Below are positions 33,126 to 61,273 of a stretch of 64,000 nucleotides of DNA, in pieces (the first letter of the stretch is position 1; each line of letters opens with the position of its first letter). The stretch comes from an uncultured Nitrososphaeraceae archaeon (lineage in GTDB: Archaea; Thermoproteota; Nitrososphaeria; Nitrososphaerales; Nitrososphaeraceae), in NCBI GenBank assembly GCA_963729045.1, contig CAVSMN010000012.1, positions 339,683-403,682 of the forward strand. Direction: 5' to 3'. Below the pieces are notes generated by a model that saw only the letters and a list, made by a program, of their open reading frames with translations, had not been told where the DNA came from and made no database searches. The translations under genes were made by a program, and so were the position numbers.

Positions 33126-35849
33126 GTGCAGCAAGTAAATTTGGCATCAGATAAGAAAGATGAATATTATTCAAAGAAACTACCCGAAGATATACCGTCC
33201 TTGCTTCTTTCATCCTTCTATGTAGGGGAAAAAAAATCTGTTTTCCTAAAGTTTTATAATCCTGCTGACTCACAAATTTATTTTTGGAGCGAGTATTTTA
33301 TAGGCAATACTAGTTCAAAGAAGCATCAACCTTACTGTTTTGTTAAAAAAAAATTTGAAGTTGAAGCAAAGAGTGTTGTAGATCAAGAATCAACCAAATT
33401 CCAAATTCAAGAAGTGAAAAAAGTAGATGATATTGTAGATGAAGAAATAGAGGTACTCAAAATTTTGGCACCCGACCCTCTGTCAATCGGGGGTACAGAT
33501 AATAGTTTTAGGGAGAGAGTTACTTCTTGGGAAGCAGATATAAAGTATCATGAAAGCTATCTCTATGATTTAGGACTAATTCCGGGGGCTTTTTATAAAA
33601 GAATCGGCAATAACTTGGTATTTCACGAATTCCCAATGCCAAAAAAGGTAGATCAATATTTAGAGAGCTTGTTTGCCTCTAACAAATTCCAGAACAATTT
33701 CAGTAGCAATGAGTATGACAAGTTTTTGCTGAAATGGTCACGTTTACTGAATCAACCCATACCTGATATAAAGAGAATTGCTATAGACATTGAAGTTGAT
33801 TCTGAGGAGGGAAGAATGCCAACTGCACGAGACCATGATCGCCTAATAACGGCAATCGGCTTGTCTGCATCTGATGGGTTCAAAAAAGTTTATGTTCTAA
33901 AAAGGGAGGAGAATATAGATCCAACAACATTAGACCCCAAGCATAGTACTTTGTAACTCTGAAAAAGAGATGCTTTTGTTAGCTTTTGATGTATTAAGTA
34001 AATATCCGGTTGTGTTAACATACAATGGCGATGATTTTGATATGCCTTATTTATATGCAAGGTCTCAGGACCCTGCGATTGATCCTGCAGATAGGAAGCC
34101 AATTGATAAAGAACAGGTGCCTATTCTGGTAAAAAGAGAATCATTTATGAAAAGAGGAATACAAGCAGATCCAGTCACCATCAAGTCAGGAATTCATATT
34201 GATCTTTTTAGGACATTTCAGAATAAATCCGTGCAAAACTATGCCTTTAGTCATAAATATTCAGAATTCACTTTGAGAGCCATATGTGAGGCACTGTTAG
34301 AGGATACAAAAATCGAATTTGAGGGAAGTATTAGCGATCTTTCCATTAGAAAAACTTGCAGAATATTGTCTTAAAGATGCTGATCTAACTTTCAGATTGA
34401 GCGCCTTTAACGATAATTTGCTCATGAAACTAATAATAATTATTTCGAGAATCTCTAGAATGTCTATTGAAGATATTACAAGATTCGGGGTGAATCAATG
34501 GATTCGGTCTTTAATGTTTTTTGAACATCGACAACAGAACATACTTATACCTAGAAGAGATGAGTTACTTCAAAAAGGATCTTCATCAACCACTGCAATA
34601 ATTAAAGAGAAAAAATATCGAGGTGGATTAGTCGTTGAACCCGAACTTGGAATTCACTTTAACGTAGTTGTGGTGGATTTTGCAAGTTTGTATCCTAGCA
34701 TTATTAAGGTACACAATTTGTCTTATGAAACAGTAAATTGTCCTCACAACAAGTGCAAAGATGACCCGCTTAATCATATCGAGGGAACAACCCATTGGAT
34801 ATGTAGGAAGAAAAGGGGGATGACTTCAATTCTAATTGGAACTTTACGTGATTTACGGGTAAATTACTATAAACATCTGTCCAAAGATACCAGTCTTGGT
34901 AAAGATGATAAACAACTTTATGGTGTTGTGAGCCAAGCAATTAAGGTAATTTTAAATGCCACATACGGAGTCATGGGAGCAGAGATATTTCCACTCTATT
35001 GCCTGCCTGTCGCAGAGGCTACTGCCGCCATTGGGAGAACTACTACGACCAGAACGATAAACAAATGCGATGAGAATCATATCAAGGTAATATATGGAGA
35101 TACCGACTCGTTATTTTTGAAAAATCCTAGTCCTGATAGCCTGAATACGATTTCTAATTGGGCCAAATCTGAACTGGGAGTTGATTTGGAAATAGACAAG
35201 CGTTATCGGTATGTTGTATTTAGTGATCTAAAGAAAAATTATTTGGGTGTACTTGAAGACGGGACTGTCGATGTCAAGGGGTTAACTGGAAAAAAATCTC
35301 ATACCCCACCGTTTATTAGAAACGCATTTTATGAGATACTAAATGTGTTGAAAGGATATCTTTACGGAGAAGGACTTTACCAATGCTAAAACTAGAATAA
35401 AAAAAATAGTTCATTCTCTTGCAGAAGACCTTGAGAAGAAAAGTATTCCTTTATCTGATTTAAGTTTTAATGTAATGATAAATAAGTCTCCAGAAAAATA
35501 CGGGATCAAATTTCAAGAAAATAGAAATCATCGCGCCATTTCTTTAGATGGTAAAGATAAGAATATAGAAAGCATAAAGGGAATCCCTCAGCATATAAAG
35601 GCCGCAAAACAACTTGTCGAATTAGGACGACAACTCAAAGCTGGCGATATTATTTCCTATGTTAAAACAAGGACTATTGAAGGAGTAAAACCCGTTGAAT
35701 TAGCTAACAAAATGGATATAGATACTGAGAAATATCTTGATACAATGGAATCTACCTTCGATCAAATCTTATCATCACTAAATTTGAATTTTAAATCTAT
35801 AATTGGAAAGCCTAGGCAATCCAATCTTGATGAGTTGTTTTGGACTTGA
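33126..35849 (+). CDS. polB: Family B DNA polymerase (PolB1-type), three apparent frameshifts
   Basis: Exonuclease 'DIEVD' and 'YNGDDFD'; polymerase 'DFASLYPSII', 'KVILNATYG', 'YGDTDS', 'KKNY'. Confidence 0.95.
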
Positions 35850-35889: not shown

Positions 35890-36865
35890 ATGGATAAAAT
35901 CTCTTATTTAGAAAACTTCTTTATTCCTCCAGAGAAAACAGTCGCAGGGCACACTTTTTGTGATATTCCTATCCCTATTACATTTGATGCTTCGAAAATA
36001 TGTATAGTAGGAATCCCAATAGATATAACAACTACATTTGGAAAAACAGCATCTTTTGGCCCTGAAGCAATTCGAACCACTTCAGCAAAACAAATCGAAA
36101 CCCTTGTTTTTGAGGAGGACGTTGAGATTTATGAGAAGGCATTGATTTATGATATTGGTGATGTAAATTTTGGGAAACTTAATGACGGTAAGATTAGCGA
36201 TATTAAGGAAATTAGTAAATTTTGGGTAGAGTTTGACAGCAAGTTGTCTTCAGTGTTAAGAATTATAGTGGATTCAAACAAAATACCTGTTATCCTAGGT
36301 GGTGAACATACAATTACATATTCTATTTATAAGGAACTATCTGAAACACATCCACTATTAATCCATTTTGATGCTCATCGTGACATGAAATCGATTTACC
36401 AAGGTATGTCGATGTGTCATACAACTCCATTTTATCATCTGATTAGGGAAGGTTATCTTAGAGGGAACGATTTAGTCCAAATCGGCATAAGGCAAGGAGA
36501 TAGAGAAGAGAATAAATTCGCAATTGACAATGGCGTTATTACTTTTGATGCATGGGAATGCAACAGTTCTCTGGAGAAGGTCTGTACAGTGGTTAAAAAC
36601 AAACACCTACAAACGAGACATTTACATATCATTTGATATCGATGTTTACGATATATCTTATTTACCTTGCACTGGAACACCAGAACCATTCGGATTAAAT
36701 CCCTTTCAAATATTAGAGCTTGTCAATAGCATAAGCGATACAGCAAGATTAGTTGGAGTTGATTTTGTTGAAACTGGTCTAAAGAACAATGATTATAGAG
36801 AAGGGGCGTTGGCAACCCAAACTCTACTTAGGATTTTGTCTAGACCATACATGTCCAATCTTTGA
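35890..36865 (+). CDS. speB: Agmatinase / arginase-family ureohydrolase (frameshift near 36580)
   Basis: 'GGEHTIT', 'HFDAHRD', 'SFDIDVYD', 'TGTPEPFG'. Confidence 0.85.
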
Positions 36866-43658: not shown

Positions 43659-45301
43659 ATGACCAATTCTCCAAAATTTATATTTGTAACTGGGGGAGTA
43701 ATGTCTGGCTTAGGGAAAGGAATCGTAGCTTCATCTATCGCCAAATTATTACAACTTTGTGGGTTGAAAGTAACTTGCATAAAAATAGATCCTTATTTGA
43801 ATTATGATGCAGGAACAATGAATCCCCTCACTCACGGTGAGGTGTTTGTTACTGATGATGGGGGTGAATGTGACATGGACATTGGAAACTACGAGCGTTT
43901 TCTAAATACTAGTTTAAAATCAGGCCACAATTTGACTGCGGGGCGAATTTTTTCAAATGTGATAGGATTAGAAAGGCAAGGAAAATACCTTGGCCAGTGT
44001 GTACAAATAATACCACACATAACGGATGAAATAAAAAAACAGTTGAGAAAGATATCCACAGAAGAGAATCTAGAAATTATTGGTCGTAGAATGTGGGGGA
44101 ACGGTTGGAGATATTGAAAGCTTACCTTTTTTGGAAGCATTAAGACAGATGGAGTTGGAAGACGGGTATACAAATACTTTCTTTGTTCACGTAACTTTGG
44201 CCCCTGTTCTGGACGCTGTAGGAGAGCAAAAAACAAAGCCTACCCAACATAGCGTGCAGGAATTGCGCAGGATAGGCATACAACCTGACTTATTGGCAGT
44301 GAGATGTAGAACTCCATTAACCAAAGAAACGATTAGAAAAATTTCACTTTTTGCTAGTATTCCGACGGATTGTGTAATGTCTAGTCATGACGCACCTTCA
44401 ATTTATTCTGTTCCAAGAATATTGTATGATCAGGGGATTACGAAAGTAATTTCAAAGAGTTTGAATTTAGATTTAACCCCAAGAATTTTGAAATGGAATA
44501 AGATTGCCAACTCCTTCCTAAAATTCAATGGGAGTGTGAAAATAGCAATAATTGGAAAATACGTAGAATTGAAAGACAGCTATGTAAGCGTATCGCAGGC
44601 GGTACTACATGCTGGTGCTAAATTCGCCAAGGAAATAATAATAGATTGGATAGATTCTGAAAAATTGGAATTCTCTGGTTCTAACAAACATGGTACAAAT
44701 ACTAATTCAAAGATTCTTGAATGCTTAAGGGAATTTGATGGTATTTTGGTTCCCGGAGGATTCGGAAGTAGGGGTAGCGAAGGTATAATTAATTCATGCA
44801 ATTTTGCAAGGGTGAATGGTGTTCCTTTCTTAGGGATTTGTTTTGGCTTTCAACTGGCAATAGTTGAGTTTGCAAGAAATGTGTGTAAACTAACTGGTGC
44901 AAATTCAACAGAAATCAATCCAGAGACTAACAACCCAGTAGTTCTATATATGCCCGAACAAAAACAAATCAAAGCGATGGGAGGAACGATGAGATTAGGG
45001 CCTTCACAATATTCAAATTGAACCTGGTTCTATTGCTTCAAAAATATATCGAAAAAACATGGTTCAAAAGCGCCATAGACACAGGTATGAGTTTAATCAA
45101 AAGTATAGAGATCTGATTGAAAACAAAGGAATGAAATTTACTGGGTCATCAGATGCAGGAAAAAGGATTGAAATTTTAGAAATACCTAGTCATAAGTTCT
45201 TTCTAGGTATTCAGTATCATGGTGAATTTCATAGTCGACCAGGGTTTCCAGAACCTGCATTTGAAAATTTCATAAGAGCAACTCTTGAAAATAAGAAATA
45301 A
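43659..45301 (+). CDS. pyrG: CTP synthase (two apparent frameshifts)
   Basis: '[11 protein letters not shown]', 'GGTVGDIES', 'KTKPTQ', 'GICFG', 'RHRHRYE', 'QYHGEF'. Confidence 0.97.
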
Positions 45302-47806: not shown

Positions 47807-49052
47807 TTATTGGCTATTTTCAGGTTTCTTATCGTCTTGAGTAGATGACTTTGTAGTTTCGTTTTTGCCACTATCAGTATCACTAGATGAGCTGGATGCT
47901 GTATCGTTTTTGCCACTATCAGTTTCACTGGATGAGCTGGATGCTGTATCGTTTTTGCCACTATCCGTAATTTTCTTTGTAAATTTCTTATAAATCTCAT
48001 CCTCACCTTCTTGCTCAAGACCAAAAATAATATCAGCAAGATTTCTTCCTGTTTCGTTTGGATCAGTCTGATCTAAATATTGAGCTTTTGTAGTTGTTGA
48101 TGATGATGGTGGTGGTGGTGGTGGAGATTTTGTAGTTGTTGATGATGGTGGTGGTGGAGGTGGTTGTAGTTGTTGATGATGGTGGTGGTGGTGGTGATGT
48201 TGTAGTTGTTGATGATGGTGGTGGTGGAGGTGATGTTGTCGTCGTTGTTGTGGTTGATGATGATTTGGAAGTTTTGTCTGGGGTTGTCATTTTCTTATTA
48301 TCGGGTTTTTCTAAATAATCATTAACATTCTTGGTGATTTTTGATAATGATGTTGGTGGTTCATTAATTCTGGATGTAATAGTACCCGATGAAGCCTCAT
48401 ATTCATGGTTTCTGCTGGACATATCTTTGAATGTTTGAGCTGAAAACAGAGGTGTCCCGAACTTTGTAGAGACTATTTTTAATCTCTCAAGTACAGTTAC
48501 AGCTGCTAAGATTGAAATAATCCATAGGGCTACAGATATGTTTTCTTGGAACGGTATAAAACCAAGAATCACAATGATGATTATTCTTTCGGCTCTTTCT
48601 GCAATGCCTTTTCCTTTTAGGTCTACGCCTAACCCTTCACCTCGGGCTCTTGTATAGCTAACTAACAATGAAAGCGAAAGAGCAACTAGAACAAGTACTG
48701 GGTTTGTAAAACTGCCTATAAGGATACCTGTAAATATGATTATTTCAGATACTTTGTCCAAGACTGAATCAAGATATCCACCCAATGCCGATGTTCTCTT
48801 TGTTACGCGGGCAACCGCTCCGTCTACGACATCAAAGAAGCCTGCTAAAAGTAGGAATAAACTACCTAAGAATGTAGCAGTATACCAATCCACTCCAATC
48901 GCAGGTGAATGTAAAGAAAACATAATAGCTGATATTATTGAAAGACCTAAACCTACCCATGTCCAGAAGCTCGGTCCAAAACCTAAACTTGCAAATCCTC
49001 TCCCTACCTTCTCAATTATAGGATCAAATCTATTTCTTAAGTTGTTAAGCAC
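47807..49052 (-). CDS. CDP-alcohol phosphatidyltransferase (archaetidylinositol-phosphate synthase-like) with long low-complexity C-terminal tail; frameshift in the repeat at ~48155
   Basis: 'DVVDGAVAR...GGYLDSVLDK' signature; tail TTTTSPPPPPSS repeats; shifted frame continues ...KAQYLDQTDPNETGRNLADIIFG...DSGKNDTASSSSS...PENSQ* (stop at 47807). Confidence 0.85.
47859..47964. repeat. 45-bp tandem coding repeat (~2.4 copies) encoding DSGKNDTASSSSS(E/D)T
   Basis: tcgtttttgccactatc occurs three times at 45-bp spacing. Confidence 0.85.
48088..48265. repeat. Low-complexity ggt/gtt/gat coding repeats (Thr/Ser/Pro tracts)
   Basis: Repeated tgtagttgttgatgatggtggtggtgg units. Confidence 0.85.
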
Positions 49053-49232: not shown

Positions 49233-50198
49233 TTGTCCAACGAAAATAAGTCAAAAAATTTATCGTTTACGCGCAACAAAGTAGTTATCATAGGACTTGG
49301 CCAACTTGGTCTTCCAGTTGCAAAATATGTTAAAGAACATGGTTTTGATACTTATGGATATGATATAAATCAAAAAACCATGCAATCAGCTGAAGCCAAC
49401 TATGGAATAAAGCAAGCATCCAACTTTGGTGATTTTGACGTACTAATTATCTGTGTATCTACACATAGACCAGATGATATGTTTACACCACAAGTAGATG
49501 GTTTGATGTCTGTTGTTGAAAAGATATCTAGAGAAGCTAAAACAGGCGCACTAATATCAATTGAAAGCACTATACCAAAAGGTACATCTAAAAAAGTATT
49601 TGAAAAAGTAGACCATAGACTACACGTTGTACATGCACCACATAGATGGTATGCATTAGAAGAAGAAGTTCACGGTGTTAATCAATTACGTATTGTAGGA
49701 GGTGTAAGCAACTGCTGCTTGCAACACGGTCTTAACTTTTATGATGGACGGGAGGTAGTACCCCAGACAACAGAAACAACAAAAGCTGCATCATCAGCTG
49801 GGATAAAAACTCTATCAATTCCAATGCATCCAGTATCGTCAGTTGAAGTAGCAGAACTAACAAAAATAGTAGAAAATGCTCATAGATATCTTCAAATAGC
49901 ATTTGCAGAAGAGCTTTACCTCTATTGCAAGTCTAACAGTATCAGTTTTTCTGAATTACGTGAATCACTCAATACAAAATGGAATGTAGAAGTTCTAGAA
50001 CCTAGGGATGGAATAGGAGGTCACTGTCTTCCCAAAGATACAAGGATGTTTATCAATTCATCTAACACAATAAGAAGCAAAATACTTCAAGCAGCCATGG
50101 AGATTGATGAGGACTATAGAGAATATTTCCAGAATGCTAAGGAACTTAATAAATCCTGTGAAGAAAAAGACTGTGAAATCATAAAAGCCCTAAGATGA
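49233..50198 (+). CDS. NDP-sugar dehydrogenase family protein (short form)
   Basis: 'IGLGQLGLP', 'IESTIP', 'AELTKIVENAHR', 'GIGGHCLPKD'; appears to lack the usual C-terminal domain. Confidence 0.85.
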   Translation: MSNENKSKNLSFTRNKVVIIGLGQLGLPVAKYVKEHGFDTYGYDINQKTMQSAEANYGIKQASNFGDFDVLIICVSTHRPDDMFTPQVDGLMSVVEKISREAKTGALISIESTIPKGTSKKVFEKVDHRLHVVHAPHRWYALEEEVHGVNQLRIVGGVSNCCLQHGLNFYDGREVVPQTTETTKAASSAGIKTLSIPMHPVSSVEVAELTKIVENAHRYLQIAFAEELYLYCKSNSISFSELRESLNTKWNVEVLEPRDGIGGHCLPKDTRMFINSSNTIRSKILQAAMEIDEDYREYFQNAKELNKSCEEKDCEIIKALR

Positions 50199-50206
50199 AT
50201 TAACTA

Positions 50207-50851
50207 ATGTCAAATGATGCAAAAAGTGAAAATATTCTAGTTTTTGGTGCTCATCCTGATGATTTGGAAATAGGTATGGGAGGAACCGTAGCAAAGCTAT
50301 CTAGACTCGGTTATAAGGTGAAATTAGTAGTTGCCACTTTACCTAATTTTACTCAGAGTGATAAAAAAGACGAGAGGAGAATGGAAGCAGTAAGATCCTC
50401 AAAGGTAATGGGATGTCCTGAGCCAGACTTCCTAGACCTTCCTCCAGGAGAGATGACTCATAGCAGGAAACTAATTGGAATAATGGACAAGTACATGGTT
50501 GATTATAAACCCGTAGCAGTATTTACTCAATGGATAGGCGATTCACATCAAGACCACCAAGCACTTACCAAATCTGTCATTTCAGGAAGCAGAGATACTA
50601 CCGACTTGTATATGTATGAAACAACAATCCCAGGAGGGATCACAGAACAAGCATTTAGACCACAGTTATTCATAGATGTATCTGACTATATGGAACCAAA
50701 AAAATCAGCTCTAAAGTGCTTTGAATCTCAACAACTAAGATGTGGTCCGATTTGGATCGATGCAATAGAAGGTCGAGCTGCGTTCAGGGGATACCAACTA
50801 AATTGCAAGTACGCTGAAGCCTTTGAAGTAATCCGAATTTCAAAGTGGTAA
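50207..50851 (+). CDS. PIG-L / LmbE-family de-N-acetylase (BshB1-like)
   Basis: 'AHPDDLEIGMGGT', 'DSHQDH', 'YAEAF'. Confidence 0.9.
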   Translation: MSNDAKSENILVFGAHPDDLEIGMGGTVAKLSRLGYKVKLVVATLPNFTQSDKKDERRMEAVRSSKVMGCPEPDFLDLPPGEMTHSRKLIGIMDKYMVDYKPVAVFTQWIGDSHQDHQALTKSVISGSRDTTDLYMYETTIPGGITEQAFRPQLFIDVSDYMEPKKSALKCFESQQLRCGPIWIDAIEGRAAFRGYQLNCKYAEAFEVIRISKW

Positions 50852-50896
50852 TTTTTTACAATTTTTAAAAACTGTTTATAAATATTAGTAATGCTG

Positions 50897-51974
50897 TTAG
50901 AAATAGTCTACAATTGAAGAGTTTAATGTTTTGACAGATTTTTTTTGCATCATGACTCTTTCATATTTTTTCTTATCAATGTAAGTTTCGTTCCAATATC
51001 TAAAACAAACAAGCGATTTATGATCCAGGGTTTTTACATCTTCATTAAATAAAACATTTCTGACCATTATGTCAGGTTCATTTACTCCTGCCACTGTTCT
51101 CATTGGACCAGAGGCTGAAAACCGAGGATTAATTTCTATGATCTTGACCTGATTGTCATCCACATCTATTCGAGATTGAATATTTAGTGGGCCAAAGGTT
51201 CTTAATTTCTTTGCTATCTGATTGCATACTTTCGTAACTTTGGGATACTTGTCTATAAACGCCTTATAGGTTTGACCGTGTTTTAGAACTTTCTTAAGCG
51301 TTATCGTGGACATGATCTGATTTTTTTCCTTGCCCAGAGTCAACCCAGTTGTATATTCATTTGCATCACCTTTTAGATATTTCTGGATCATCGGTTTCCA
51401 GCCTGTCTGAGTTATTGCCTTACAGGCAAATTCTAACTCTTCAATAGAGTTGACGATCTGAAATAGCTTCGAGCCAAACCCCTCTCGAGGTTTTACTACT
51501 AGTGGAAATCTATAATCCTTCATAAAGTCGTCTATCTCATGGTACAAACAAGTTGGAATGAAATTCAGATTATTTTCTTGTAAAAATTCATTTGTCCTGT
51601 ATTTATCTCGACACATTTCCACTACTTGTGGTTGACTCGTAATGACTGATTGCACCGGTCTTCTCCTCAATAAGATCTTTATTTTTACATAATATAGGCA
51701 GTTCTACATCTGATCCTATAAACAGAACTTGAATTTTGTTTCTATTACACAAATCTACGATTGACTTTAGATATTCTTTAGCCGTTGGTTTTGGGATAAG
51801 GGAGAATTTGTGAGCCCTATATAAGCCGGAGGCCTCATAATTGATATCTGTTGCTAGGATTTTGTATTCATGTCTTTTAAGCCTCGAATACTTATTATGA
51901 TATTTCAATGATTTGATTATGCCTTGTGCTACTATTCCACCGGCTGAGGTAACGACAACATTAATGGTTTTCAT
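50897..51974 (-). CDS. ATP-grasp ligase (frameshift near 51640)
   Basis: 'TSAGG', 'CRDKY', 'VVKPREGFGS', 'IQKYL...EYT', 'IEINPRFS'. Confidence 0.85.
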
Positions 51975-51999
51975 CGGACTAATAATTTTAAATGATTTA

Positions 52000-53659
52000 T
52001 CAGTTTAGTAGCACTGGTTTAGTCAAATCATTATTATTAACTAAATTGTGAGACCATTCGTGCTCGATATGTTCCATCTCCATATTAACGGCATAATCGA
52101 TTATACAAGATTTTAATTTCAATGCATTTTTAGATTTTTGAACGTTCTTTATGACGTCCTTAATTTTTCTTTGTTCTTGTTTATAGTAAAATAAATTGTT
52201 TAACAGACCTTGTAATTGTTCTTTATTCTTATAAATTTCATTTCGCCTAGATATCAGGGGTTCGATTTTTTTCCTCAATTCATCATTCTTATAATTGATA
52301 TCAATAAAGAACTCAGACATATTAGATATATTGTTCTCCTCTAAATATTTTGATGCTTCTCTTTGGGCAATCCCTGTAAAAACATCGTTCCCTGCCCAGA
52401 GCATCATAGCGGGCAATCTTATCTGCAATTCATCAAAGACTTTCTTTCCTACAATCGTATATCCTATGCTACCACCAGTACCTGAGATATATCCAGAAAT
52501 AGCCAATTCTCTCGATAATAGAAGCAAGATTGGGATTGCTCGTGGAGAAACCATATCAATCTTGTTCTCTGGTATTGAGACCTTTCCATTCGTGCCGATT
52601 GATAATGATAAATTTTTCTTGCAAGATATGCATTTACCGATTAATACAATTTCTCCATTATCCTTCCTGCTTATTTTAGAGGAAGCCTTGCTGCCACAAT
52701 CACAGTGTAACCACAAGGGAGAATGCTTATTTAGGTTTGCGCTTACTCCAGTATATATTCCATGTTCTCTAAAATAAGTTTCTGATTTCTCCAATGAATC
52801 TTAGATAACTTTCATTTTCAGATAAAAGAAAGTTGTATCCCCTTTGAAATACTCGAGAAAGATCTGATAGATTTACAAATAATGTTTTATAATTCCAAAA
52901 ATTATTGGCGATCTTTGACATGATAATTGAATTGAATTCAGAATAATTATCAGCCAGTAAAAACGCATCTTCAACTATATTCCAGAACTTTTGGAATCTG
53001 TCATACAAAGCCTTAACTTCAGACTTTGACAAATCCTTGTTATTTTTTATCCAATTGTATATTTGATTTTCCCAATAATTTATTAAGGAGCGAGTCGGTG
53101 AGTCAGTCATACTTGAGATCTTCCATCTTTTTGAATCATTGATTGGATATCTTAAATCAAGTACTCCGGTGGCATTTCTTATACTAGGTAATTTTGCCAC
53201 ATGCATCCATTTATCATCCATAAAATCATGATCAACTATCAAAAACAGGGGAACGATAGTATGATTTTCCCTTTTGGAGTGATTCGCAAGTGACTCTAAT
53301 AATACTATTTTCTTAAAAACCCCACTAAATGCAAATAAATTGGGCTGGTGAATCCCAACGATAATTTTTAATCTTTCATCGGATAAAGCATCAATTTGGT
53401 TTATTATCTTCTCATTAAGAGTTCCTGCCTTTGCATGAAAATTTGTTGTAGCCTTTCTGAGAAGTTTACGATTTGAGCCAATAAATTCATCTGTTTCAGG
53501 TATAGGATTTTTGCTCAAAATATCAACTGCTTCGTCGAACTTTGACGGGATGGATTGTACAAACTTGCTAATATCTGAATCTGAAGAATTCAGATATCTG
53601 GAGAATATTGCACTTAATTTACTGTCACCGTCAATAGTGGCTACCGTATTACTTCCCAA
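52000..53659 (-). CDS. BshC-like ligase (~550 aa; frameshift near 52785) with Zn-ribbon insert
   Basis: 'VGIHQPNLF', 'VPLFLIVDHDF', 'SPRAIP...GYISGTGGSIGY' and a C-terminal coiled coil parallel BshC motifs; HCDCG...KCISC insert. Confidence 0.6.
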
Positions 53660-53705
53660 ACCTTTTAATCATTAATATCTATTTAAGTTTCTTTTTAACT
53701 ATATC

Positions 53706-54337
53706 TTATTTCTCTTCTATAAGATTTATCAAATCCTTTATTCTATTAAAATTCCCTATATCATTAATGGCATGTGCATCGCTACCTAGATGGAATTTTA
53801 CACCGAATTCTTTAAAAATTTTCAAAAATTCTATGGGTGGACGTATATATTTTGAATTAATTTCTATTTTTTTCCCATTAGCTACGACCAATTCTGCTAA
53901 ATTTCTTAATTCACGATTCATTTACTTTAAAATCAATCTCTGGAGCGAGATGCCCAATTACATCCACATTCGGATTCTTTATTGCATTAATTAACGCCTC
54001 GTACCATTTTTCCTTGGTGTATTTTGTGTGAAAACTAGCAATGATAAAATACTCGTTATTTAAGTAACTCTGCTGGGCAATCAACTTCACCGTCTGCTAA
54101 TATCTTGGCCTCAAATCCTCTAAGGATCTTGATTTTAGTCTTTGGGATGTAGTAGTTTAGTTCATCAATATACTTTTTCGTCCATTCAGAATTTTTTCGT
54201 ACATGCTCTGTAATAGCTATCCTTTCTAAGCCTAGAGATTCTGATTTATTTATAATATTAGGTATGGTTAAATCCTTTGAAGAATGGTCATTATAGTTAC
54301 AATGTATATGCAAATCTTCTTTCATGTTTAGCATCAT
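53706..54337 (-). CDS. PHP-domain protein (frameshifted)
   Basis: 'DLHIH', 'AITEH', 'GFEAKI', 'IEINSKY', 'GSDAH'. Confidence 0.85.
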
Positions 54338-54447
54338 AATTTTATCTGAAAAAGTTATGCAAATATGTTTTATAATTTTTCTTAATTACAACGTTCAAAA
54401 ATATTTATATCATTAACAAATTTAACTCTATTAAAAACGGATGCCCA

Positions 54448-55449
54448 TTGCGTAGAAAAATATCCACAGTATTGATTCCCGGTGCTTCTGCACCTGCTGG
54501 AATAAATACGATAAAATCATTGAGATTATCAGATTTTAAGGGCAAAATATTATCTACGGACTCTAACAGTTTATCTGCAGGTTTTTATTTATCTGACTAC
54601 TATGAGGTGATACCAGAAGCTGAAGCAGAAGATTATTTGGAAGTGCTGCTTAACATAATCGACAAATATAACATAGAAATTTTAATGCCATCGTCAGGTT
54701 ACGATATTTTTCCATTCAGTGAATTCAAATCTAAATTGAAAAAACATGGGGTGATTCCCGTCGTGAGTGACCGAAAAATTTTGGAAATTTGTAGAGACAA
54801 GATATACACATTTAATCATTTGAACAAATTTTTCAATCTACCCTTTACTACTTTAAATCCAAATGAAATTGATACTTATCCGGTTATTGCAAAGCCTCGT
54901 TTTGGAAAGGGCAGTAGGGATGTAATTCAGGTAAACGATGAGCAAGAAAAAAAATACATTTGCTCTAAATTCCCCAATATGATCTACCAAGAATTTTTGC
55001 CAGGAGATGAATATACAATTGATGTCATGAGTGATCTGGACGGCGACCCAATAATATCTGTTCCACGTGTAAGATTGCAGACAAAAAGTGGTATTTCTAC
55101 AAAGGGTAAGATTATTCTTGATAAAGAATTAATTGAAGAATCCATGAGGATAGTGAAAAAACTTAAAATAATTGGACCCTCTTGCATTCAAATGAAAAAG
55201 GACAAGACAGACCAATTCAAGTTGGTAGAAATAAATCCTCGGCTTGGCGGGGGTACAATTTTTACAACTTTGGCCGGTGCCAACTTCCCTAAAATGGTTT
55301 TGGATTTGGTCGAAGGAAAAAAAATAGATCCTCCAAAGATATCTGAAATTACTGTACTAAGATACTTTGAAGAAATTGTTTTGGATGAAAGAAACAAGAT
55401 TAACTACAGCGGAAAAGACCTTCTAGCAAGTAATCCATGTCGTATATGA
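54448..55449 (+). CDS. ATP-grasp ligase (second paralogue)
   Basis: 'CRDKI', 'IAKPRFGKGS', 'YQEFLPGDEYTID', 'VEINPRLGG'. Confidence 0.88.
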   Translation: MRRKISTVLIPGASAPAGINTIKSLRLSDFKGKILSTDSNSLSAGFYLSDYYEVIPEAEAEDYLEVLLNIIDKYNIEILMPSSGYDIFPFSEFKSKLKKHGVIPVVSDRKILEICRDKIYTFNHLNKFFNLPFTTLNPNEIDTYPVIAKPRFGKGSRDVIQVNDEQEKKYICSKFPNMIYQEFLPGDEYTIDVMSDLDGDPIISVPRVRLQTKSGISTKGKIILDKELIEESMRIVKKLKIIGPSCIQMKKDKTDQFKLVEINPRLGGGTIFTTLAGANFPKMVLDLVEGKKIDPPKISEITVLRYFEEIVLDERNKINYSGKDLLASNPCRI

Positions 55450-55532
55450 TTGAAGAAATTGTTTTGGATGAAAGAAACAAGATTAACTACAGCGGAAAAG
55501 ACCTTCTAGCGAGTTATGCATGTCGTACATGA
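55367..55532. repeat. 83-bp tandem duplication
   Basis: 55367-55449 and 55450-55532: first 61 bp identical, four mismatches in the remainder. Confidence 0.9.
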
Positions 55533-55713
55533 TTTTGTCTATTGCTCCTGTTGAATTTTGAAGTGTATCAATTTGAAAGTATTGGCCAGTAGCTTCTAGT
55601 ATCTGGCAAGGCCACAATCCTGTCAGATTCATTAGTATAACACAAAAACCTATTGTCATTGCTAAAGCGACTATAACTACATCCGTATATTTAAATTCAA
55701 TTTTTGATTTCAA
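55483..55713 (-). CDS. Small single-TM protein downstream of the GT2
   Basis: Hydrophobic N-terminus 'VVIVALAMTIGFCVILM'; co-oriented with the GT2. Confidence 0.55.
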   Translation of the reverse strand: MKSKIEFKYTDVVIVALAMTIGFCVILMNLTGLWPCQILEATGQYFQIDTLQNSTGAIDKIMYDMHNSLEGLFRCS

Positions 55714-55762
55714 ACTTGTTCCCTTATTTAATTTGTTCTAGAATATTTTGAATCTGCAACCA

Positions 55763-57238
55763 TCATCTCCAACCAGTTTTCTTTATGGTAATTGCAGCGT
55801 AAATTAAGAGCCAAGTATAAACATAGGTCGATAAAAGCTGGAAAAAAGGCCTATAAACCCAATTCTTGTCGCCTGGGTTTCTCAGTCTGAAATCAACACC
55901 ATAAATCATTCCAGTAAACAATACTCCTGCAAACCAGACAATAGGAGTTATAAAGTCACCAGCAAGGGGCATAAAGATGACAGTAGTCGCCACAATATAT
56001 GGCCTGATAAATTTCATCGAAGTTTGTAAATAGTATAAAAGTGCTACATAAAATGGCCTCTTCCAAAAAATACCTCCAGCAGCAAATAAACTTCTGATAA
56101 AACTCTTCCTCCATCTAACCTGTTGTTTTATTAATGAATCAAGTGTTGGTGGAACTCCAATATTTACCCTTATCCTTTGCGAATACAAAACCTTCCAATA
56201 ACCGTGGACATCTTGATTAGATTCATCTCGACCATTCTCGTCCTCTAACATATTTTCGGACATGGACCTCTTGGCAGTACCCTCAGCGTTGAGGATTGGA
56301 ATCTGGGCATATTGTTGGCTGGTTGATTTGTTAGAAATCTTTGGAGGTCGAGTCGACAAAACATACGCCGTCATTCTCCTATCAGTTGCAAATTTGAACT
56401 CCATACCTAAGAATCTGTCTCGTGCCCATAGAGGAATAAAGTCTTGTATAGCAACCCGTCTATAGAAACTAAGTGATCCTGCACAACAACTAACGGAATA
56501 AAAAACGGTTTCCATCCCTTTTTGTGCCCTACAAGCCCCATCGGCGTAGACGTCTTGCATTTTCTCAAGAAAGTGATCCCGAAATCCTCCAGTGTGTCTG
56601 TTTTTAACTCGTCCGTGTCCAGTGAGGGCCCCTACTTGTTTATCTGAGTAAAAAATCTGCACAGCCTTTTCAGTTGCATCAACAGCCATGTCACAATCAC
56701 TATCCATGAAAGCGTATATCTCGCCGCGTGCAATCTTGCTAGCGGCCTCTATAGCCTTTTTCTTTCCAAGGCTTTCCTTCAGATGTACTATTCTCAGGTT
56801 AACTGTTTTGTTTTTATCCTTAATCGTGTCAAGAATCTCACCAGTCTTATCCGTACTACCATCGTCTATGACGATTATTTCCTTATTCTTATAAGTTTGG
56901 TCAATGCATGACTGTATACATGTACTAATGTCGGCTTCCTCATTTTTTACAGGAACGACAATAGATACCAGCGGTTTTTCGTTCTCAGGAATTACCTTAT
57001 CGAAATCTTTAATGTATGGGTCTTTATACCGAAAATACGAAATTAATAAAATATTAAATAAAATAAATGAAGTTAAAATGCTGTAGATTCCTACTCCCAG
57101 GTCTATCACATATATGGTCAAATAAATCTTAGTGAATAGAATTACCAGGACGGATGATAAGAGTAATACCCTAACAAACCATCTTTTATTATCCAATTCC
57201 TTTGTATTAATGAATTTAGTTGGATTACTCAAAGCCAA
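55763..57238 (-). CDS. Processive membrane GT2 (hyaluronan synthase/NodC-like)
   Basis: 'VIDDGS', 'DSD', 'TDRRMT', 'QQVRW'; N- and C-terminal TM helices. Confidence 0.88.
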   Translation of the reverse strand: MALSNPTKFINTKELDNKRWFVRVLLLSSVLVILFTKIYLTIYVIDLGVGIYSILTSFILFNILLISYFRYKDPYIKDFDKVIPENEKPLVSIVVPVKNEEADISTCIQSCIDQTYKNKEIIVIDDGSTDKTGEILDTIKDKNKTVNLRIVHLKESLGKKKAIEAASKIARGEIYAFMDSDCDMAVDATEKAVQIFYSDKQVGALTGHGRVKNRHTGGFRDHFLEKMQDVYADGACRAQKGMETVFYSVSCCAGSLSFYRRVAIQDFIPLWARDRFLGMEFKFATDRRMTAYVLSTRPPKISNKSTSQQYAQIPILNAEGTAKRSMSENMLEDENGRDESNQDVHGYWKVLYSQRIRVNIGVPPTLDSLIKQQVRWRKSFIRSLFAAGGIFWKRPFYVALLYYLQTSMKFIRPYIVATTVIFMPLAGDFITPIVWFAGVLFTGMIYGVDFRLRNPGDKNWVYRPFFQLLSTYVYTWLLIYAAITIKKTGWR

Positions 57239-57398: not shown

Positions 57399-57608
57399 CT
57401 AATTCCACCTCAATCTTTCATTTTCTCTGTCCTCCTTGGAAGATTTTTTCCAATCTTTATAGTGATTCCTACATAAATATACGCGCTTTTTTGAATTATC
57501 AAAATCTAAATCTTGTGACATTTTCGCCTTTGCCAAACTCATTGATCTATCTGCAGTCTCTTCGCAACCTAAGACACTACAGGTAATTCCCTTCTCTACC
57601 TTTCCCAT
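57399..57608 (-). CDS. Small Cys/His Zn-binding protein
   Basis: MGKVEKGITCSVLGC...YLCRNHYK; likely start is the ATG at 57608. Confidence 0.7.
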   Translation of the reverse strand: MGKVEKGITCSVLGCEETADRSMSLAKAKMSQDLDFDNSKKRVYLCRNHYKDWKKSSKEDRENERLRWN

Positions 57609-57663
57609 TAAAAAGCAAAAGCCATTATAATATAATAAAGTTAATGGAAAATTTGACAGCAGC

Positions 57664-60267
57664 TTATAAAGTAAAGTATTGGGCCACTGGGTTATGTACA
57701 ACTATAGCAGCAGTAGAGAATTCAGGATCAATTTGTCCACTTTCAGTTAGAGTCATTCCACTAATTGAAGGATTCAATAATTTCCATACCATGAAATGTT
57801 GGGTTATATCTGGACAGCTTGGGTAACCCCAACTGTACCTCAATCCACCTACCTTTAACCCGAGCTCTTCCTTGATTTTATAATTTACCCAATCTGCTAA
57901 AGCTTCAGTCGTTTCCACTGCCAGCCCGTGTAGGTAGTAGGCATCAGTATAACGACCTTGTTTATTCCATTCATCTATTGTTTCAGCAACTTTATTTCCC
58001 ATTGTTACTGACTGAAATGCAACAACATCATCGGATTCTGAATCAAAATAATCTGCAAGACATAAATGTGAAGAATTGCTAGACCTGGGGAATTCAAACG
58101 TTAGTTCTGAATCAATCTTAGTACCGTCGTGGTATTTTACTGAGAGGCTATTGTTTCCTACCTTTCGACATCGAAAATAAGAGTAAACTGCATGAGGATC
58201 AAATAATTTCTCCTTTACAACTTTGACCTTCCATTCTTTAAGTAGTTCTTCAAACTCATCTTTCAATTCCGTAGCTTTTTTTCCCCTCAATCCCCACGAC
58301 AAGACAAAAAGGGATTTCTTATTCAAGTATTGCCATATTTCTTTGAGCGGAAGGTCATTATTCTCTAGTCTGGTTACAAAATTAAATTTGGGAGGTACAG
58401 GTTTATCTTTTACTGGTTTCACGCTACTTAAGATTTTACTTAAATCTTGCGCATTGGTAGCCTCGTTATATTTTCTTTCTTTCCAACTTGATAGTTTTTC
58501 CAACCATTTATTCATGTACTCTTCTTTACTACCGCTCATCAGATTATTCATCACCTTCAGTCCTTCAAAGGCAGTTTTGCAGTAAAATATTCCAGCTTTG
58601 TAAATATTGCCATCCCCCTTTGCTATCCTATTAATGTAATCGCTATTAATTGCAGCACCACCGCATAAAACTGGAATGTCCATCTTATTCTCTCGCAAAA
58701 ATTCTGAGAAAAGCTGCATTTGTTTTGATGTCGAAACCAATAACGCAGATAATCCCACAGCATCTGCGTTTACTTCTTTAATCTTGTTTACGATACTAGG
58801 AATAGGAACCTGTTTCCCTAAATCAAAAACTTCGTAGCCATTGTTAACCAATATTGTCTTTACCAAATTTTTTCCTATATCATGTACATCGCCATATACA
58901 GTACACAAGACGATTTTTCCTTTGCTAATTCCCTCTTGTTTTATCAGGTATTTCTCTAGCTCCAAAACTGCAGCCTTCATACATTCGGCTGATTTTAGAA
59001 CGAAAGGCAGGATCAATTCTCCAGCGCCAAATTTATCTCCCACTTCTTTCATTGCAGGAAGAAGAACTTCATTTAGTGTTTCTACTGAGGCCTCATGTAA
59101 TTTTTCTTTATTACCTGAAAGTGTTTTCCTCTTTGTACCGTTTTCCAATAATTCGTCTAGTATAGAAAAATCATCTTTGGATGAAATTCTCTCTGAAATA
59201 GATAAAACTACATCGTTTTCAATTCCATCTTTTAGTCTATTAACAATTCTAAAATAGCACTTTTTACCTGCATCCCAACTTGCATCCATTTCCATTAAAT
59301 TGTTCTGTTTTTGAATACCTGTAGATGCTGATGCTGTTCCTGTCCCATCAGTAGCATTATTGGAACTAAAGTAAGATATCAATTCAGATAATGCATTATT
59401 ATTATTATTAAAAATAAGGTCTTCGCAAATCCCTTTCTCCTTAGAATTGATTTGAGGGTATGGGATGATATCTTTAGGATTAATTATCACAGTATCGAGA
59501 CCACTTTTTATTGCATGATACAAGAAAACTGAGTTGAGATATTTTCTAGCCAGCGGCGATAATCCGAAGCTTACGTTACTTAATCCCAGCGTCGTCAAAG
59601 ACTTTGGATATTTTTCTTTTACGAATTTTATTCCATCTAGAGTATGAGCAGCAGATGCGACATATTCTTCCTCACCTGTTGCTAACGTAAATGTTAATAC
59701 ATCAAAAATTAACTGCCATGGTTTTAGACCCAATTCAATTGCTTTGTCATGCAAAATTCCTGCAACTTCTAATTTTTCTTGGCTAGTTTTTGCCATCCCA
59801 TTGGGTCCTATGCACATCGAAACCGCAGGTGCTCCGTATTTCTTCATCAGCGGAGTAATATCATTAAATCTACTCCCATCGCCTTCTAGATTAATTGAAT
59901 TGATTATAGGTACTCCAGGAATTTGCTTGAGGGCAGTAGCAATAACTTTTGAATCCGTTGAATCAATTACCAATGGTGCCTCTATTTCTAAACTAAGCCT
60001 CTTGACAATTTTTTGCATGAAATCCTGTTCATCCGACCGTTCTGTTGTTGCAACACATACATCTAAACAGTGTGCGCCATCCTCAACCTGGTATCTCGCT
60101 AACTCAATTAATCCGTCAAAGTCATTCTCTAGTACCATTTTCTTGGCTTTCTTTGATCCTTGAGAATTTAGTCGCTCTCCAATGATTAATGGACGGGGAT
60201 TTTGATGGAGTTCCAAAGAAGCTAATGCAGAAGATACTTTTGGTTTTTCATTGTAAATTTTTTTCAT
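57664..60267 (-). CDS. metH: Cobalamin-dependent methionine synthase: pterin-binding, B12-binding and activation domains
   Basis: 'IGERLNSQGSK', 'GDVHDIGKNLV', 'GLSALL', 'RYSWGYPSCPD'. Confidence 0.95.
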   Translation of the reverse strand: MKKIYNEKPKVSSALASLELHQNPRPLIIGERLNSQGSKKAKKMVLENDFDGLIELARYQVEDGAHCLDVCVATTERSDEQDFMQKIVKRLSLEIEAPLVIDSTDSKVIATALKQIPGVPIINSINLEGDGSRFNDITPLMKKYGAPAVSMCIGPNGMAKTSQEKLEVAGILHDKAIELGLKPWQLIFDVLTFTLATGEEEYVASAAHTLDGIKFVKEKYPKSLTTLGLSNVSFGLSPLARKYLNSVFLYHAIKSGLDTVIINPKDIIPYPQINSKEKGICEDLIFNNNNNALSELISYFSSNNATDGTGTASASTGIQKQNNLMEMDASWDAGKKCYFRIVNRLKDGIENDVVLSISERISSKDDFSILDELLENGTKRKTLSGNKEKLHEASVETLNEVLLPAMKEVGDKFGAGELILPFVLKSAECMKAAVLELEKYLIKQEGISKGKIVLCTVYGDVHDIGKNLVKTILVNNGYEVFDLGKQVPIPSIVNKIKEVNADAVGLSALLVSTSKQMQLFSEFLRENKMDIPVLCGGAAINSDYINRIAKGDGNIYKAGIFYCKTAFEGLKVMNNLMSGSKEEYMNKWLEKLSSWKERKYNEATNAQDLSKILSSVKPVKDKPVPPKFNFVTRLENNDLPLKEIWQYLNKKSLFVLSWGLRGKKATELKDEFEELLKEWKVKVVKEKLFDPHAVYSYFRCRKVGNNSLSVKYHDGTKIDSELTFEFPRSSNSSHLCLADYFDSESDDVVAFQSVTMGNKVAETIDEWNKQGRYTDAYYLHGLAVETTEALADWVNYKIKEELGLKVGGLRYSWGYPSCPDITQHFMVWKLLNPSISGMTLTESGQIDPEFSTAAIVVHNPVAQYFTL

Positions 60268-60295: not shown

Positions 60296-61273
60296 TTAGG
60301 TAGCAGTTCCGTCTTCAAGGGATAAATTTACAGGAGTTTTATTTCTTGAGTTAAGCATGGAGTGTAAATGCTTTATATGATCTACTGAAGTACCACAGCA
60401 CCCGCCGATTACTTTTAACCTTTCATATTTATTCACGAATTCGGAAAGTTTTAGAGTGATTTCTTGTGGAGTCATCAAGTATTTAGCCATACCATTTTCA
60501 TTCACTGGCATTCCAGCATTGGGCATGACTAAGATGGGTAACTCATCTTGTTCGCATAACCATTGTACGCTAGGTGTCATTTCCATGGGTCCTGTAGAAC
60601 AATTTAAGCCAAATACATCTATATCTAAATTACTTAAAGTTGTATATGCTGCCTGAACGCTTGATCCAAGTAACATTTTCCCATATTGGTCTAGGGTTAC
60701 GTTGGTAATTACCGGTAAAGTCTTTTCTAACTTGTTCATCGCACGAAAGCAGCTTTCAACAGCAAGTTTCATCTCTAGCACATCTTGTCCTGTTTCAATT
60801 AGGAGGGCATCACAACCTCCAATTATCAGTCCCTGAGCTTGGACAAAAAATGCTTCTTCGATTTCTCCCAATGAAATATTACCCAGATCCGAATCGTTTG
60901 AGCTAGGTAAATATCCTGATGGACCCATCGAACCGATTACATAAACTTCACGACCTATCTCTGTAGCTGATTCTTTAACAAGTTTTGCTCCTTGAACATT
61001 AAAATCGATGGTCTTATCGCCCTGCCCATATTCATCTAATTTAAGTTTATTGCTACCAAAGGTATTGGTTTCGATACAATCACTGCCTGCTTTGATGTAG
61101 CTCTTATGGATCGTCTTTATCCAATCAGGACGGGTAAAATTCAAACTATCGTTAAATCCCTCCTTATTATTGAGAAAATCGTTTTCTCTAGGTTCGTATT
61201 TTTGGATTTCTGTACCCATTGCACCATCAAATAAAAGAACTTTAGTCGCTAAGTCATTAAGAAAGCCATTCAA
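60296..61273 (-). CDS. metH: Methionine synthase homocysteine-binding module (split MetH N-terminal part)
   Basis: 'FDGAMGT', 'GLNCSTGP', 'IGGCCGT'. Confidence 0.93.
   Translation of the reverse strand: MNGFLNDLATKVLLFDGAMGTEIQKYEPRENDFLNNKEGFNDSLNFTRPDWIKTIHKSYIKAGSDCIETNTFGSNKLKLDEYGQGDKTIDFNVQGAKLVKESATEIGREVYVIGSMGPSGYLPSSNDSDLGNISLGEIEEAFFVQAQGLIIGGCDALLIETGQDVLEMKLAVESCFRAMNKLEKTLPVITNVTLDQYGKMLLGSSVQAAYTTLSNLDIDVFGLNCSTGPMEMTPSVQWLCEQDELPILVMPNAGMPVNENGMAKYLMTPQEITLKLSEFVNKYERLKVIGGCCGTSVDHIKHLHSMLNSRNKTPVNLSLEDGTAT

Follow-up and report, generated by a model that had tools for sequence, protein, structure and literature searches.

A gene block joining a BshC-like zinc-ribbon protein to a hyaluronan synthase-like glycosyltransferase in Nitrososphaeraceae archaea

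A stretch of 64,000 nucleotides from an uncultured Nitrososphaeraceae archaeon (GenBank assembly GCA_963729045.1; hereafter the window) carries a block of eight genes at positions 49233-57238, in which a protein with the fold of BshC is encoded together with a membrane glycosyltransferase of family 2 (GT2) resembling hyaluronan synthases, two ATP-grasp ligases, a PIG-L-family deacetylase, a PHP-family phosphoesterase, a short dehydrogenase and a small membrane protein. The reading we favour, to which we give about an even chance, is that this block is a Nitrososphaeraceae surface-glycan locus whose product, a polymer of amino sugars bearing further substituents, belongs to the envelope or to the extracellular polysaccharide (EPS). 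We rank it first because the BshC-like gene adjoins three different polymer-type glycosyltransferases in three architectures.

The window (C12:339683-403682) comes from a draft genome that is 87% complete, with 2.85 Mb in 22 contigs, and the proteins closest to those of the block belong to public records named Candidatus Nitrosocosmicus. An initial annotation, made from the letters alone, had described the eight genes as one pathway lying between core genes. Open reading frame (ORF) calls and profile scans against Pfam and NCBIfam located all eight between core genes and in the families it had named. As for the single pathway, the genes are indeed co-conserved throughout the genus, but the block resolves into two sub-modules and not into one indivisible pathway.

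Two gene units and their distribution

Unit 1 consists of the GT2 (gene H; 55763-57238, minus strand, 491 amino acids (aa)), the small transmembrane protein (G; 55483-55713, minus strand, 76 aa), ATP-grasp ligase 2 (F; 54448-55449, plus strand, 333 aa) and the PHP protein (E; 53706-54337, minus strand, 209 aa after frame repair), and is kept together even without the BshC-like gene. Unit 2, the extension, consists of the BshC-like ligase (D; 52000-53659, minus strand, 552 aa after frame repair), ATP-grasp ligase 1 (C; 50897-51974, minus strand, 358 aa after frame repair), the PIG-L protein (B; 50207-50851, plus strand, 214 aa) and the short dehydrogenase (A; 49233-50198, plus strand, 321 aa).

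The two units were delimited with a locus scan, which took one genome per species and the best 80 of 180 relatives, and in which each neighbour was counted only over loci whose contig reaches far enough. Among the 26 loci at the level of Nitrosocosmicus, the BshC-like gene is accompanied by every other enzyme gene of the block wherever the contig reaches, namely PHP (26/26), ATP-grasp 2 (22/22), GT2 (21/21), ATP-grasp 1 (23/23), PIG-L (8/8) and dehydrogenase (7/7), and the expectation that the genes would be co-conserved in relatives was thus borne out. In 44 loci of the same arrangement from other genera, ATP-grasp 1 is still present in all 33 that reach, followed by PHP (32/39), ATP-grasp 2 (31/36), PIG-L (7/15) and dehydrogenase (4/9). 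Outside the genus, the PIG-L gene is thus not a constant companion of the BshC-like gene.

The reciprocal arrangement, unit 1 alone, also occurs. We fetched 16 GT2 loci, eight from g20 and eight from g25, from genomes with a GT2 but without a BshC-like match. The GT2 adjoins ATP-grasp 2 in all 16, and PHP follows in all 14 that reach, while no BshC-like gene, ATP-grasp 1, PIG-L or short dehydrogenase was found in the fetched DNA of these 16 loci. In the two annotated examples (L117 and L118) the flanks are unrelated housekeeping genes.

A wider survey of 151 Nitrososphaeraceae genomes, each at least 85% complete and including the unpublished genomes G068, G150 and G168, found the BshC-like gene in 84, representing all 14 genera but patchily in g20 (8/25), g25 (1/20) and g27 (11/37). 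The GT2 was found in 119 of the 151 at E <= 1e-60, including 23/25 in g20 and 18/20 in g25. Within the genus itself 22 of the 24 sampled genomes have the BshC-like gene, compared with one of 16 genomes from other families of the order.

The BshC-like gene also occurs beside polymer-type glycosyltransferases other than H. Ten loci of another genus show a second arrangement in which the PIG-L gene directly precedes the BshC-like gene; in the one annotated case (L068) the pair lies with genes for a PelF-like GT4 (DUF3492), a protein weakly matching PelG, an epimerase and an ATP-grasp enzyme. A complete genome of that genus holds both this kind of locus and another, in the order epimerase, PIG-L, ATP-grasp 2, PHP, a secreted carbohydrate-binding protein, ATP-grasp 1 and the BshC-like gene, directly followed by a 682-aa membrane-type GT2 (Glyco_trans_2_3 type) that is different from H. 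The proposal in the initial annotation that the product is a polymer is strengthened by these Pel-like and GT2 neighbours of the BshC-like and PIG-L genes in other genera, together with the GT2/ATP-grasp 2/PHP unit.

Yet another amino-sugar context is seen at a more remote locus (L017; 3212-10697 in G030, from another family of the order), where the BshC-like gene, at 33% identity, is accompanied by genes for GlmS, PIG-L, a DegT-type aminotransferase, a luciferase-like monooxygenase and a winged-helix regulator.

The ligase, the membrane synthase and their companions

The D family comprises 372 clusters at E <= 0.001 in a HMMER search of 1.84 billion representatives, and a feature search assigned most of it to the Nitrososphaerota. 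Its Pfam match, PF10079, scores 33 bits with the N-terminal piece in the window and 38.7 bits with the intact 552-aa orthologue in G015, above the gathering score of 27 bits, and is limited to the first ~150 residues. A single-sequence search of intact D against PDB sequences gave no BshC match at E up to 1, whereas the family profile found Bacillus subtilis BshC (4wbd) with E 3.6e-6, the match comprising two collinear stretches. Structure prediction extends this similarity to the whole protein. The AlphaFold model of the G015 orthologue (pLDDT 93.9, pTM 0.92) has 4wbd as its top Foldseek match (E 6.1e-19, TM 0.61/0.62), with the class I lysyl-tRNA synthetase (LysRS) 1irx next. VIA-align superposed 487 of 540 residues on 4wbd with Z 31.7, a full-length alignment that includes the long C-terminal helices, compared with Z 24.9 for 1irx (298 residues, 2.9 A) and ~12 for MshC (12.7), CysRS, GluRS and MetRS. 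That the protein encoded at 52-53.6 kb has the BshC fold, a point on which the initial annotation had staked its proposal in advance, is thus supported by the model.

An alignment of 63 members keeps H104 and Q105 (in the motif HQPNLF), K117, W316, C319, C321, C343, C346, G393 and W535 invariant. The four cysteines form a zinc ribbon (CxC...CxxC) that the model places in a four-stranded insert at residues 315-356. This ribbon lies between the two stretches aligned to 4wbd (at ~315-356), and D has HQPN in place of the GQQ-type motif of BshC. Judged by profile and predicted structure, D is genuinely, if remotely, homologous to BshC and carries a zinc ribbon; judged by its scores, its family is separate from the BshC equivalog family, since none of 34 sampled members exceeds the TIGR03998 BshC cut-off of 265.8 bits (best 41.3; any match in 10/34). 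The likeness to class I LysRS, the second-best structural match, includes a His kept at the HIGH-like position, within HQPN. The identity is 12%, D has no aligned anticodon-binding domain (aligned chain range 3-318), and its C-terminus is made of BshC-like long helices.

To our knowledge the ligase activity of BshC itself has not been reconstituted, and a relative of BshC whose structure comes close to that of class I LysRS may help to establish the function of enzymes of the BshC type. A remote member of the D family, Ferroglobus placidus Ferp_1923 (P0219/P0271), is named 'WbqC family protein' and matches PF08889 at 22.7 bits, just above the cut-off, which hints at a link between BshC and the WbqC family of O-antigen loci.

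The glycosyltransferase H (PF00535, 105.1 bits) carries DDGS at position 125, DSD at 179, TDRR at 285 and QQVRW at 372, which we take to be the D, DxD, catalytic D and QxxRW motifs of the processive GT2 family. An alignment of 14 orthologues keeps DDGS, DSDC, CCxGSLSFYRR, TDRR and QQxRWxKSFIRS in every member, while the acidic insert preceding QQxRW varies. Hydrophobic segments at 20-69 and 415-448 and model helices at 12-70 and 366-484 give two N-terminal helices and a C-terminal helix bundle around a GT-A domain. The top 13 Foldseek matches in the PDB are all hyaluronan synthases (TM 0.62-0.66 over 471-509 columns, 16-18% identity), followed by an archaeal mannosyltransferase, cellulose synthases and chitin synthases. 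The earlier description of a hyaluronan synthase- and NodC-like GT2 with QQVRW is therefore upheld by the motifs and by full-length fold matches to hyaluronan synthases. H reaches neither equivalog cut-off, scoring 120.7 bits for PgaC (cut-off 422.3) and 95.6 bits for NodC (cut-off 550), and is thus not an orthologue of either.

The small protein G has one hydrophobic segment, at about residues 7-39, and matched no family in the Pfam scan. It lies between F and H, is weakly conserved, and was found by tblastn at the same place in relatives.

The dehydrogenase A matches PF03721 and PF00984; its alignment with Cap5O covers residues 11-304 of the 431 there and keeps the catalytic-Cys motif GGHCLPKD. 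Its TIGR03026 score of 141.9 bits lies below the cut-off of 189.8 and the match ends at profile position 300 of 413; neither Pfam, NCBIfam nor the Cap5O alignment revealed a C-terminal UDP-binding domain. The length is 360-369 aa in two complete relatives. The name 'NDP-sugar dehydrogenase' in the initial annotation consequently fits the NAD-binding and central domains and the GGHC motif, but A is a short form lacking the UDP-binding domain. Clusters of such short dehydrogenases are many, in archaea, bacteria and phages, and each of five genomes has one full-length dehydrogenase elsewhere (327-362 bits). The short form itself is multi-copy, with three to four copies per Nitrosocosmicus genome beside the one full-length enzyme, for example at C7:32118-33101 and C14:55054-55913 in G000 and at several places in G015 and G012.

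The PIG-L/LmbE-family identity of B, claimed earlier as a de-N-acetylase, is secure at the family level (PF02585, 69.9 bits against a cut-off of 28.2), and its translation contains AHPDD and HQDH, presumably the metal-binding motifs. C and F, proposed as two ATP-grasp paralogues, both have ATP-grasp domains above cut-off and share ~29% identity; each is of the PylC-like_N/ATPgrasp_Ter type. In C, PylC-like_N is found in the N-terminal piece and ATP-grasp_3 (42.3 bits) and ATPgrasp_Ter (42.9 bits) in the C-terminal piece, whereas the intact F combines PylC-like_N with ATP-grasp_3 at 62.4 bits and ATPgrasp_Ter at 86.2 bits and matches PDB 2pn1 at E 1e-19. E matches PF02811 with 29.4 bits as a window piece and 33.4 bits as an intact orthologue, with PHP motifs present, in agreement with its description as a PHP protein and consistent with a metal phosphoesterase. 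A hydrophobicity check of A, B and F found no hydrophobic or transmembrane segment in these three.

Candidate products of the block

If the block makes a decorated polymer, H would polymerise and export a chitin- or hyaluronan-type chain, beta-linked and containing N-acetylglucosamine (GlcNAc). A C6 carboxylate would come from A or from the full-length dehydrogenase of the genome, and B would free the C2 amine. D could activate an amino acid as its adenylate, in the manner of class I tRNA synthetases and MshC, and place it on the freed amine; C and F might activate carboxylates, either of the uronate or of the added amino acid, as acyl phosphates and so form further amide bonds; and E may take the phosphate off a phosphorylated amine donor or a sugar-phosphate intermediate. 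The resulting polymer of the envelope or EPS would consist of amino sugars that are partly de-N-acetylated and carry amino acids. In this scheme we infer all of the substrates, the order of the steps, whether precursor or chain is modified, and the location of the product.

The scheme borrows from several known systems. With a PIG-L-family deacetylase and a BshC-fold protein side by side, as in bacillithiol synthesis, freeing a sugar amine and then acylating it is the most economical reading, and by analogy the extension would follow the common logic of bacillithiol and mycothiol, in which the free amine is acylated with an amino acid by a ligase resembling aminoacyl-tRNA synthetases. Class I hyaluronan synthases, NodC and chitin synthases share with H the full-length fold and the catalytic motifs, and hyaluronan synthase uses GlcNAc and uronic acid; H differs in its low identity to them, in the variable acidic insert before QQxRW and in falling below the PgaC and NodC cut-offs. 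We know of no hyaluronan synthase or NodC operon with BshC-like or ATP-grasp ligases. Pel and poly-N-acetylglucosamine (PNAG) are likewise synthase-dependent amino-sugar polymers with de-N-acetylation, and BshC-like and PIG-L genes stand near PelF- and PelG-like genes at L068. The Pel and PNAG deacetylases are extracytoplasmic CE4 enzymes, in contrast to the cytoplasmic PIG-L enzyme here, and the amine would presumably be re-acylated here.

Mycothiol synthesis, described in the part of the source consulted as MshA, a phosphatase, MshB, MshC and MshD (PMC7278568), resembles the block in three respects: its deacetylase is of the same family as B, the freed amine is acylated by a ligase descended from class I tRNA synthetases, and a phosphatase takes part. 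It differs in that MshC matches the D model with a Z of only 12.7, in that the block has no GT4, inositol-phosphate synthase or MshD, and in that its transferase is a membrane synthase. A precedent for the synthase side, and for the step proposed for E, is the glucuronamide system of the Campylobacter jejuni HS:2 capsule, which also includes a UDP-glucose dehydrogenase and where, according to the consulted part of its description, Cj1438, a GT2 fused to an ATP-grasp domain, amidates glucuronic acid with serinol-P or ethanolamine-P and the phosphatase Cj1435 then removes the phosphate (PMC11800379). There as here a GT2 is combined with a phosphatase and an amide ligase of the ATP-grasp class, there acting on a uronic-acid polysaccharide in the cytoplasm and here forming the inseparable GT2/ATP-grasp 2/PHP unit. 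The Campylobacter ATP-grasp is TupA-like and fused to the GT2, whereas those of the block are separate genes of the PylC-like_N/ATPgrasp_Ter type; the phosphatase is a haloacid dehalogenase (HAD) enzyme and not PHP; and the GT2 is soluble, makes a single addition and serves an ABC-transporter-type capsule, compared with a membrane synthase here. Pfam scans at E up to 0.01 found no TupA-like or HAD domain in the block, and the likeness is one of logic and not of family. Each step of the scheme has a precedent, and we found no description of the combination in the literature searched.

A number of observations weigh against a decorated polymer. The GT2 adjoins the BshC-like gene in only seven of the 28 same-arrangement loci outside the genus, PIG-L is absent beside the BshC-like gene in eight of 15 non-genus loci, and a Nitrosopolaris locus (L061) has the other seven genes of the block, without the GT2, between ThrRS and PolB. 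The related genomes behind all of these counts are kin and not independent observations. Because its UDP-binding domain is absent, the substrate of A may not be a nucleotide sugar. The model of H has a pLDDT of 67.3, with residues 276-346, including TDRR, below 50, and so is of moderate confidence. Modification would be cytoplasmic, because the enzymes lack membrane segments where checked (A, B and F), which raises the question of how a bulky decorated sugar would pass the synthase channel. Finally, the characterised relatives BshC and MshC make soluble thiols.

Several of these observations are shared by an alternative in which a soluble amino-sugar conjugate of low molecular weight is made by unit 2, alone or together with F and E, independently of the GT2, the adjacency being historical. 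Such a product could be a new thiol, a compatible solute or a cofactor-like molecule, for instance an N-aminoacyl-glucosaminuronate that is assembled on a sugar phosphate and then set free by the PHP enzyme acting as a phosphatase. The nearest characterised folds, BshC and MshC, would fit it, as would the lack of hydrophobic segments in A, B and F and the 21 of 28 non-genus loci, L061 among them, in which the module has no adjacent GT2. A dehydrogenase without a UDP-binding domain is, like the presence of a phosphatase, compatible with sugar-phosphate chemistry, and the GT2 is retained in many genomes that have no BshC-like gene (in g20, 23/25 against 8/25). Yet F and E stay with the GT2 in all 16 and all 14 loci, respectively, that lack the BshC-like gene, and at least these two enzymes are therefore tied to the synthase. 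The adjacency of the BshC-like gene to a polymer-type glycosyltransferase in three architectures also argues for a polymer, and the block has no GT4 of the BshA/MshA type that acts on small molecules. We regard a soluble product as unlikely on balance.

A further alternative keeps the GT2 in the pathway as a non-processive enzyme, which would place a single GlcNAc onto a membrane lipid or dolichol-type carrier whose head group is then remodelled, as in GPI-type GlcN-lipids or in the hopanoid chemistry of HpnI and HpnK, to give an aminoacylated glycolipid or a protein-glycan precursor. A GT2 and a PIG-L-family deacetylase acting on lipids are a known pairing, HpnI is among the weak NCBIfam matches (E 7e-6), and a CDP-alcohol phosphatidyltransferase gene adjoins the block. 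That gene, however, belongs to the conserved core flank, and in L117 and L118 the unit occurs without it alongside. The full-length fold matches of H, moreover, are processive hyaluronan, cellulose and chitin synthases, and QQxRW and CCxGxLSxYRR, which mark processive enzymes, are invariant in 14 of 14 orthologues. A glycocalyx based on either glycolipids or glycoproteins is left open in the consulted part of a cryo-electron tomography paper (PMC11559005), and we consider the lipid-carrier route decidedly unlikely.

A decorated polymer, if that is what the block makes, would bear on the cell surface of Nitrosocosmicus, a genus whose species are important oxidisers of ammonia in wastewater plants and fertilised soils. 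In the consulted part of the comparative-genomics paper on the genus (PMC11559005), Nitrosocosmicus is reported to lack S-layer genes and to have a wall ~18 nm thick whose composition is 'of particular interest', the authors suggesting an amino-sugar glycocalyx. The text of that paper does not mention ATP-grasp, bacillithiol or hyaluronan. The portion of its supplement consulted contains no 'bacillithiol', 'BshC' or 'PIG-L' and a single 'hyaluronan synthase' among the MY3 glycosyltransferases, its orthology to H not being established. A bolder proposal, which we rate as quite unlikely, is that the locus builds a wall polymer replacing the S-layer in Nitrosocosmicus, namely a glycan resembling hyaluronan or chitin, with amino acids or short peptides attached to its freed amines and uronic carboxylates by a LysRS-derived class I ligase and two ATP-grasp enzymes. 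Archaeal wall glycans that bear peptides would then include a third kind in addition to pseudomurein and the halococcal or natronococcal polymers, and the plain GT2/ATP-grasp/PHP unit of other Nitrososphaeraceae would make a simpler version. We offer the link to the missing S-layer as a hypothesis and not as a finding, because the BshC-like gene is also present in every other genus of the family that was sampled. The locus nevertheless provides a concrete and nearly genus-wide gene set with which to probe the composition of the Nitrosocosmicus wall, and the membrane synthase, ATP-grasp ligase and phosphoesterase that recur together would represent an unexplored means of decorating synthase-dependent polysaccharides.

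Frame breaks, the bacillithiol label and flanking genes

As assembled, three genes of the block are interrupted, C and D being in two pieces each and E in three, a feature that the initial annotation had overlooked. For C, the two pieces match NF009402 at profile positions 2-99 and 99-327; for E, NF006251 is matched at 2-83 and 138-194. The breaks are caused by extra single bases at 51647/8 in C, near 52797-52800 in D, and at 53914/5 and 54066 in E. We aligned 50800-54400 with contigs from three DNA runs and one metatranscriptome run of different studies, which are 92-99% identical to the window. Every run covering a break has one base fewer at 51647/8, 52797/52800, 53914/5 and 54066, and a single contig of 5296 bases covers the whole stretch with exactly four gaps. 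Deleting the four bases gives open frames of 358, 552 and 209 aa for C, D and E, and in five relatives each of the three is a single open frame (358-388, 554-565 and 213-233 aa, stop to stop). The contigs of the RNA run cover 50956-54320 nearly without gaps, which is compatible with transcription but no proof of it.

Other genes of the window, outside the block, are split in the same way. The CTP synthase (43659-45021), a family B DNA polymerase (33970-35389), an arginase/agmatinase (35890-36865), UvdE (1055-1766) and a patatin-like gene (18211-19700) each consist of two overlapping frames in which the Pfam profile positions run on past the break, a pattern that points to insertion and deletion errors throughout the assembly. 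Because other datasets lack the extra bases and other window genes are split likewise, the breaks in C, D and E are assembly errors and the genes are intact in the population. The alternative, that the four frameshifts are true pseudogenising mutations and the block is decaying in this genome, is compatible with the interruption of C, D and E in the window as given and with the fact that the four sites are not homopolymer runs. It is very improbable given near-identical contigs from four runs that lack exactly these four bases, the equivalent splitting of the essential CTP synthase and DNA polymerase genes, and the draft state of the genome. The four extra bases all lie outside homopolymer runs and three are directly beside GAT/ATC, and may reflect a systematic base-calling error at a modified motif.

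The public name of D invites a last alternative, that of ordinary bacillithiol biosynthesis. The National Center for Biotechnology Information (NCBI) names several D orthologues 'bacillithiol biosynthesis protein BshC', PF10079 is matched above its cut-off, and the best NCBIfam match of B is the BshB1 model TIGR04001, but this alternative is barely credible when all three equivalog cut-offs are missed widely: D with 19.1 bits for the window piece and at most 41.3 in 34 members against 265.8, B with 105.3 against 182.5, and BshA (TIGR03999) with no match above 273.7 in five genomes (G000, which is 87% complete, G015, G012, G004 and G030), the best being 139.7 bits in G015, followed by 137.3 in G030 and 80.5 in G012, with no match in G000 or G004. 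Bacilliredoxin (PF06491) was found in none of four genomes, with a positive Bacillus subtilis control, and YpdA (TIGR04018) scored at best 61.2 bits against a cut-off of 339.9. Two earlier expectations, that no canonical bshA would be found elsewhere in the genome and that the locus, having no GT4 in the block, is not a canonical bacillithiol one, are in keeping with these searches. Compared with bacillithiol synthesis the block lacks BshA, and its membrane synthase, dehydrogenase, phosphoesterase and pair of ATP-grasp ligases are additions. In a review of archaeal thiols, in the part consulted, the BshC homologues listed are for the most part from Asgard archaea and Thaumarchaeota go unmentioned, and the literature searched contained no paper naming both bacillithiol and Nitrosocosmicus. 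The archaeal 'bacillithiol biosynthesis protein BshC' records in Nitrosocosmicus represent a different, zinc-ribbon family, and are no evidence for bacillithiol in archaea.

The block is flanked by core genes, namely those for ribosomal protein S26e, the CDP-alcohol phosphatidyltransferase and a split methionine synthase. We considered a recent horizontal island and set it aside, the GC content being like that of the flanks and the flanks being conserved in relatives. The methionine synthase is encoded by two genes on the minus strand, 57664-60267 and 60296-61273, which divide the pterin-binding, B12 and activation domains from a separate homocysteine S-methyltransferase; the two-gene form is real, because the split is the same in all relatives examined. 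On the other side, only the first ~250-261 of 329 residues of the phosphatidyltransferase ORF (48063-49052, minus strand) align to the proteins of 339-420 aa in relatives, and by this comparison the ORF probably carries another frameshift. Between the GT2 and methionine synthase genes lies a small Cys/His-rich ORF (57399-57701, minus strand, 100 aa), whose membership in the block is uncertain. It matched no family in the Pfam scan, is found at the same position in five relatives with 62-96% identity, and could encode a small zinc-finger regulator.

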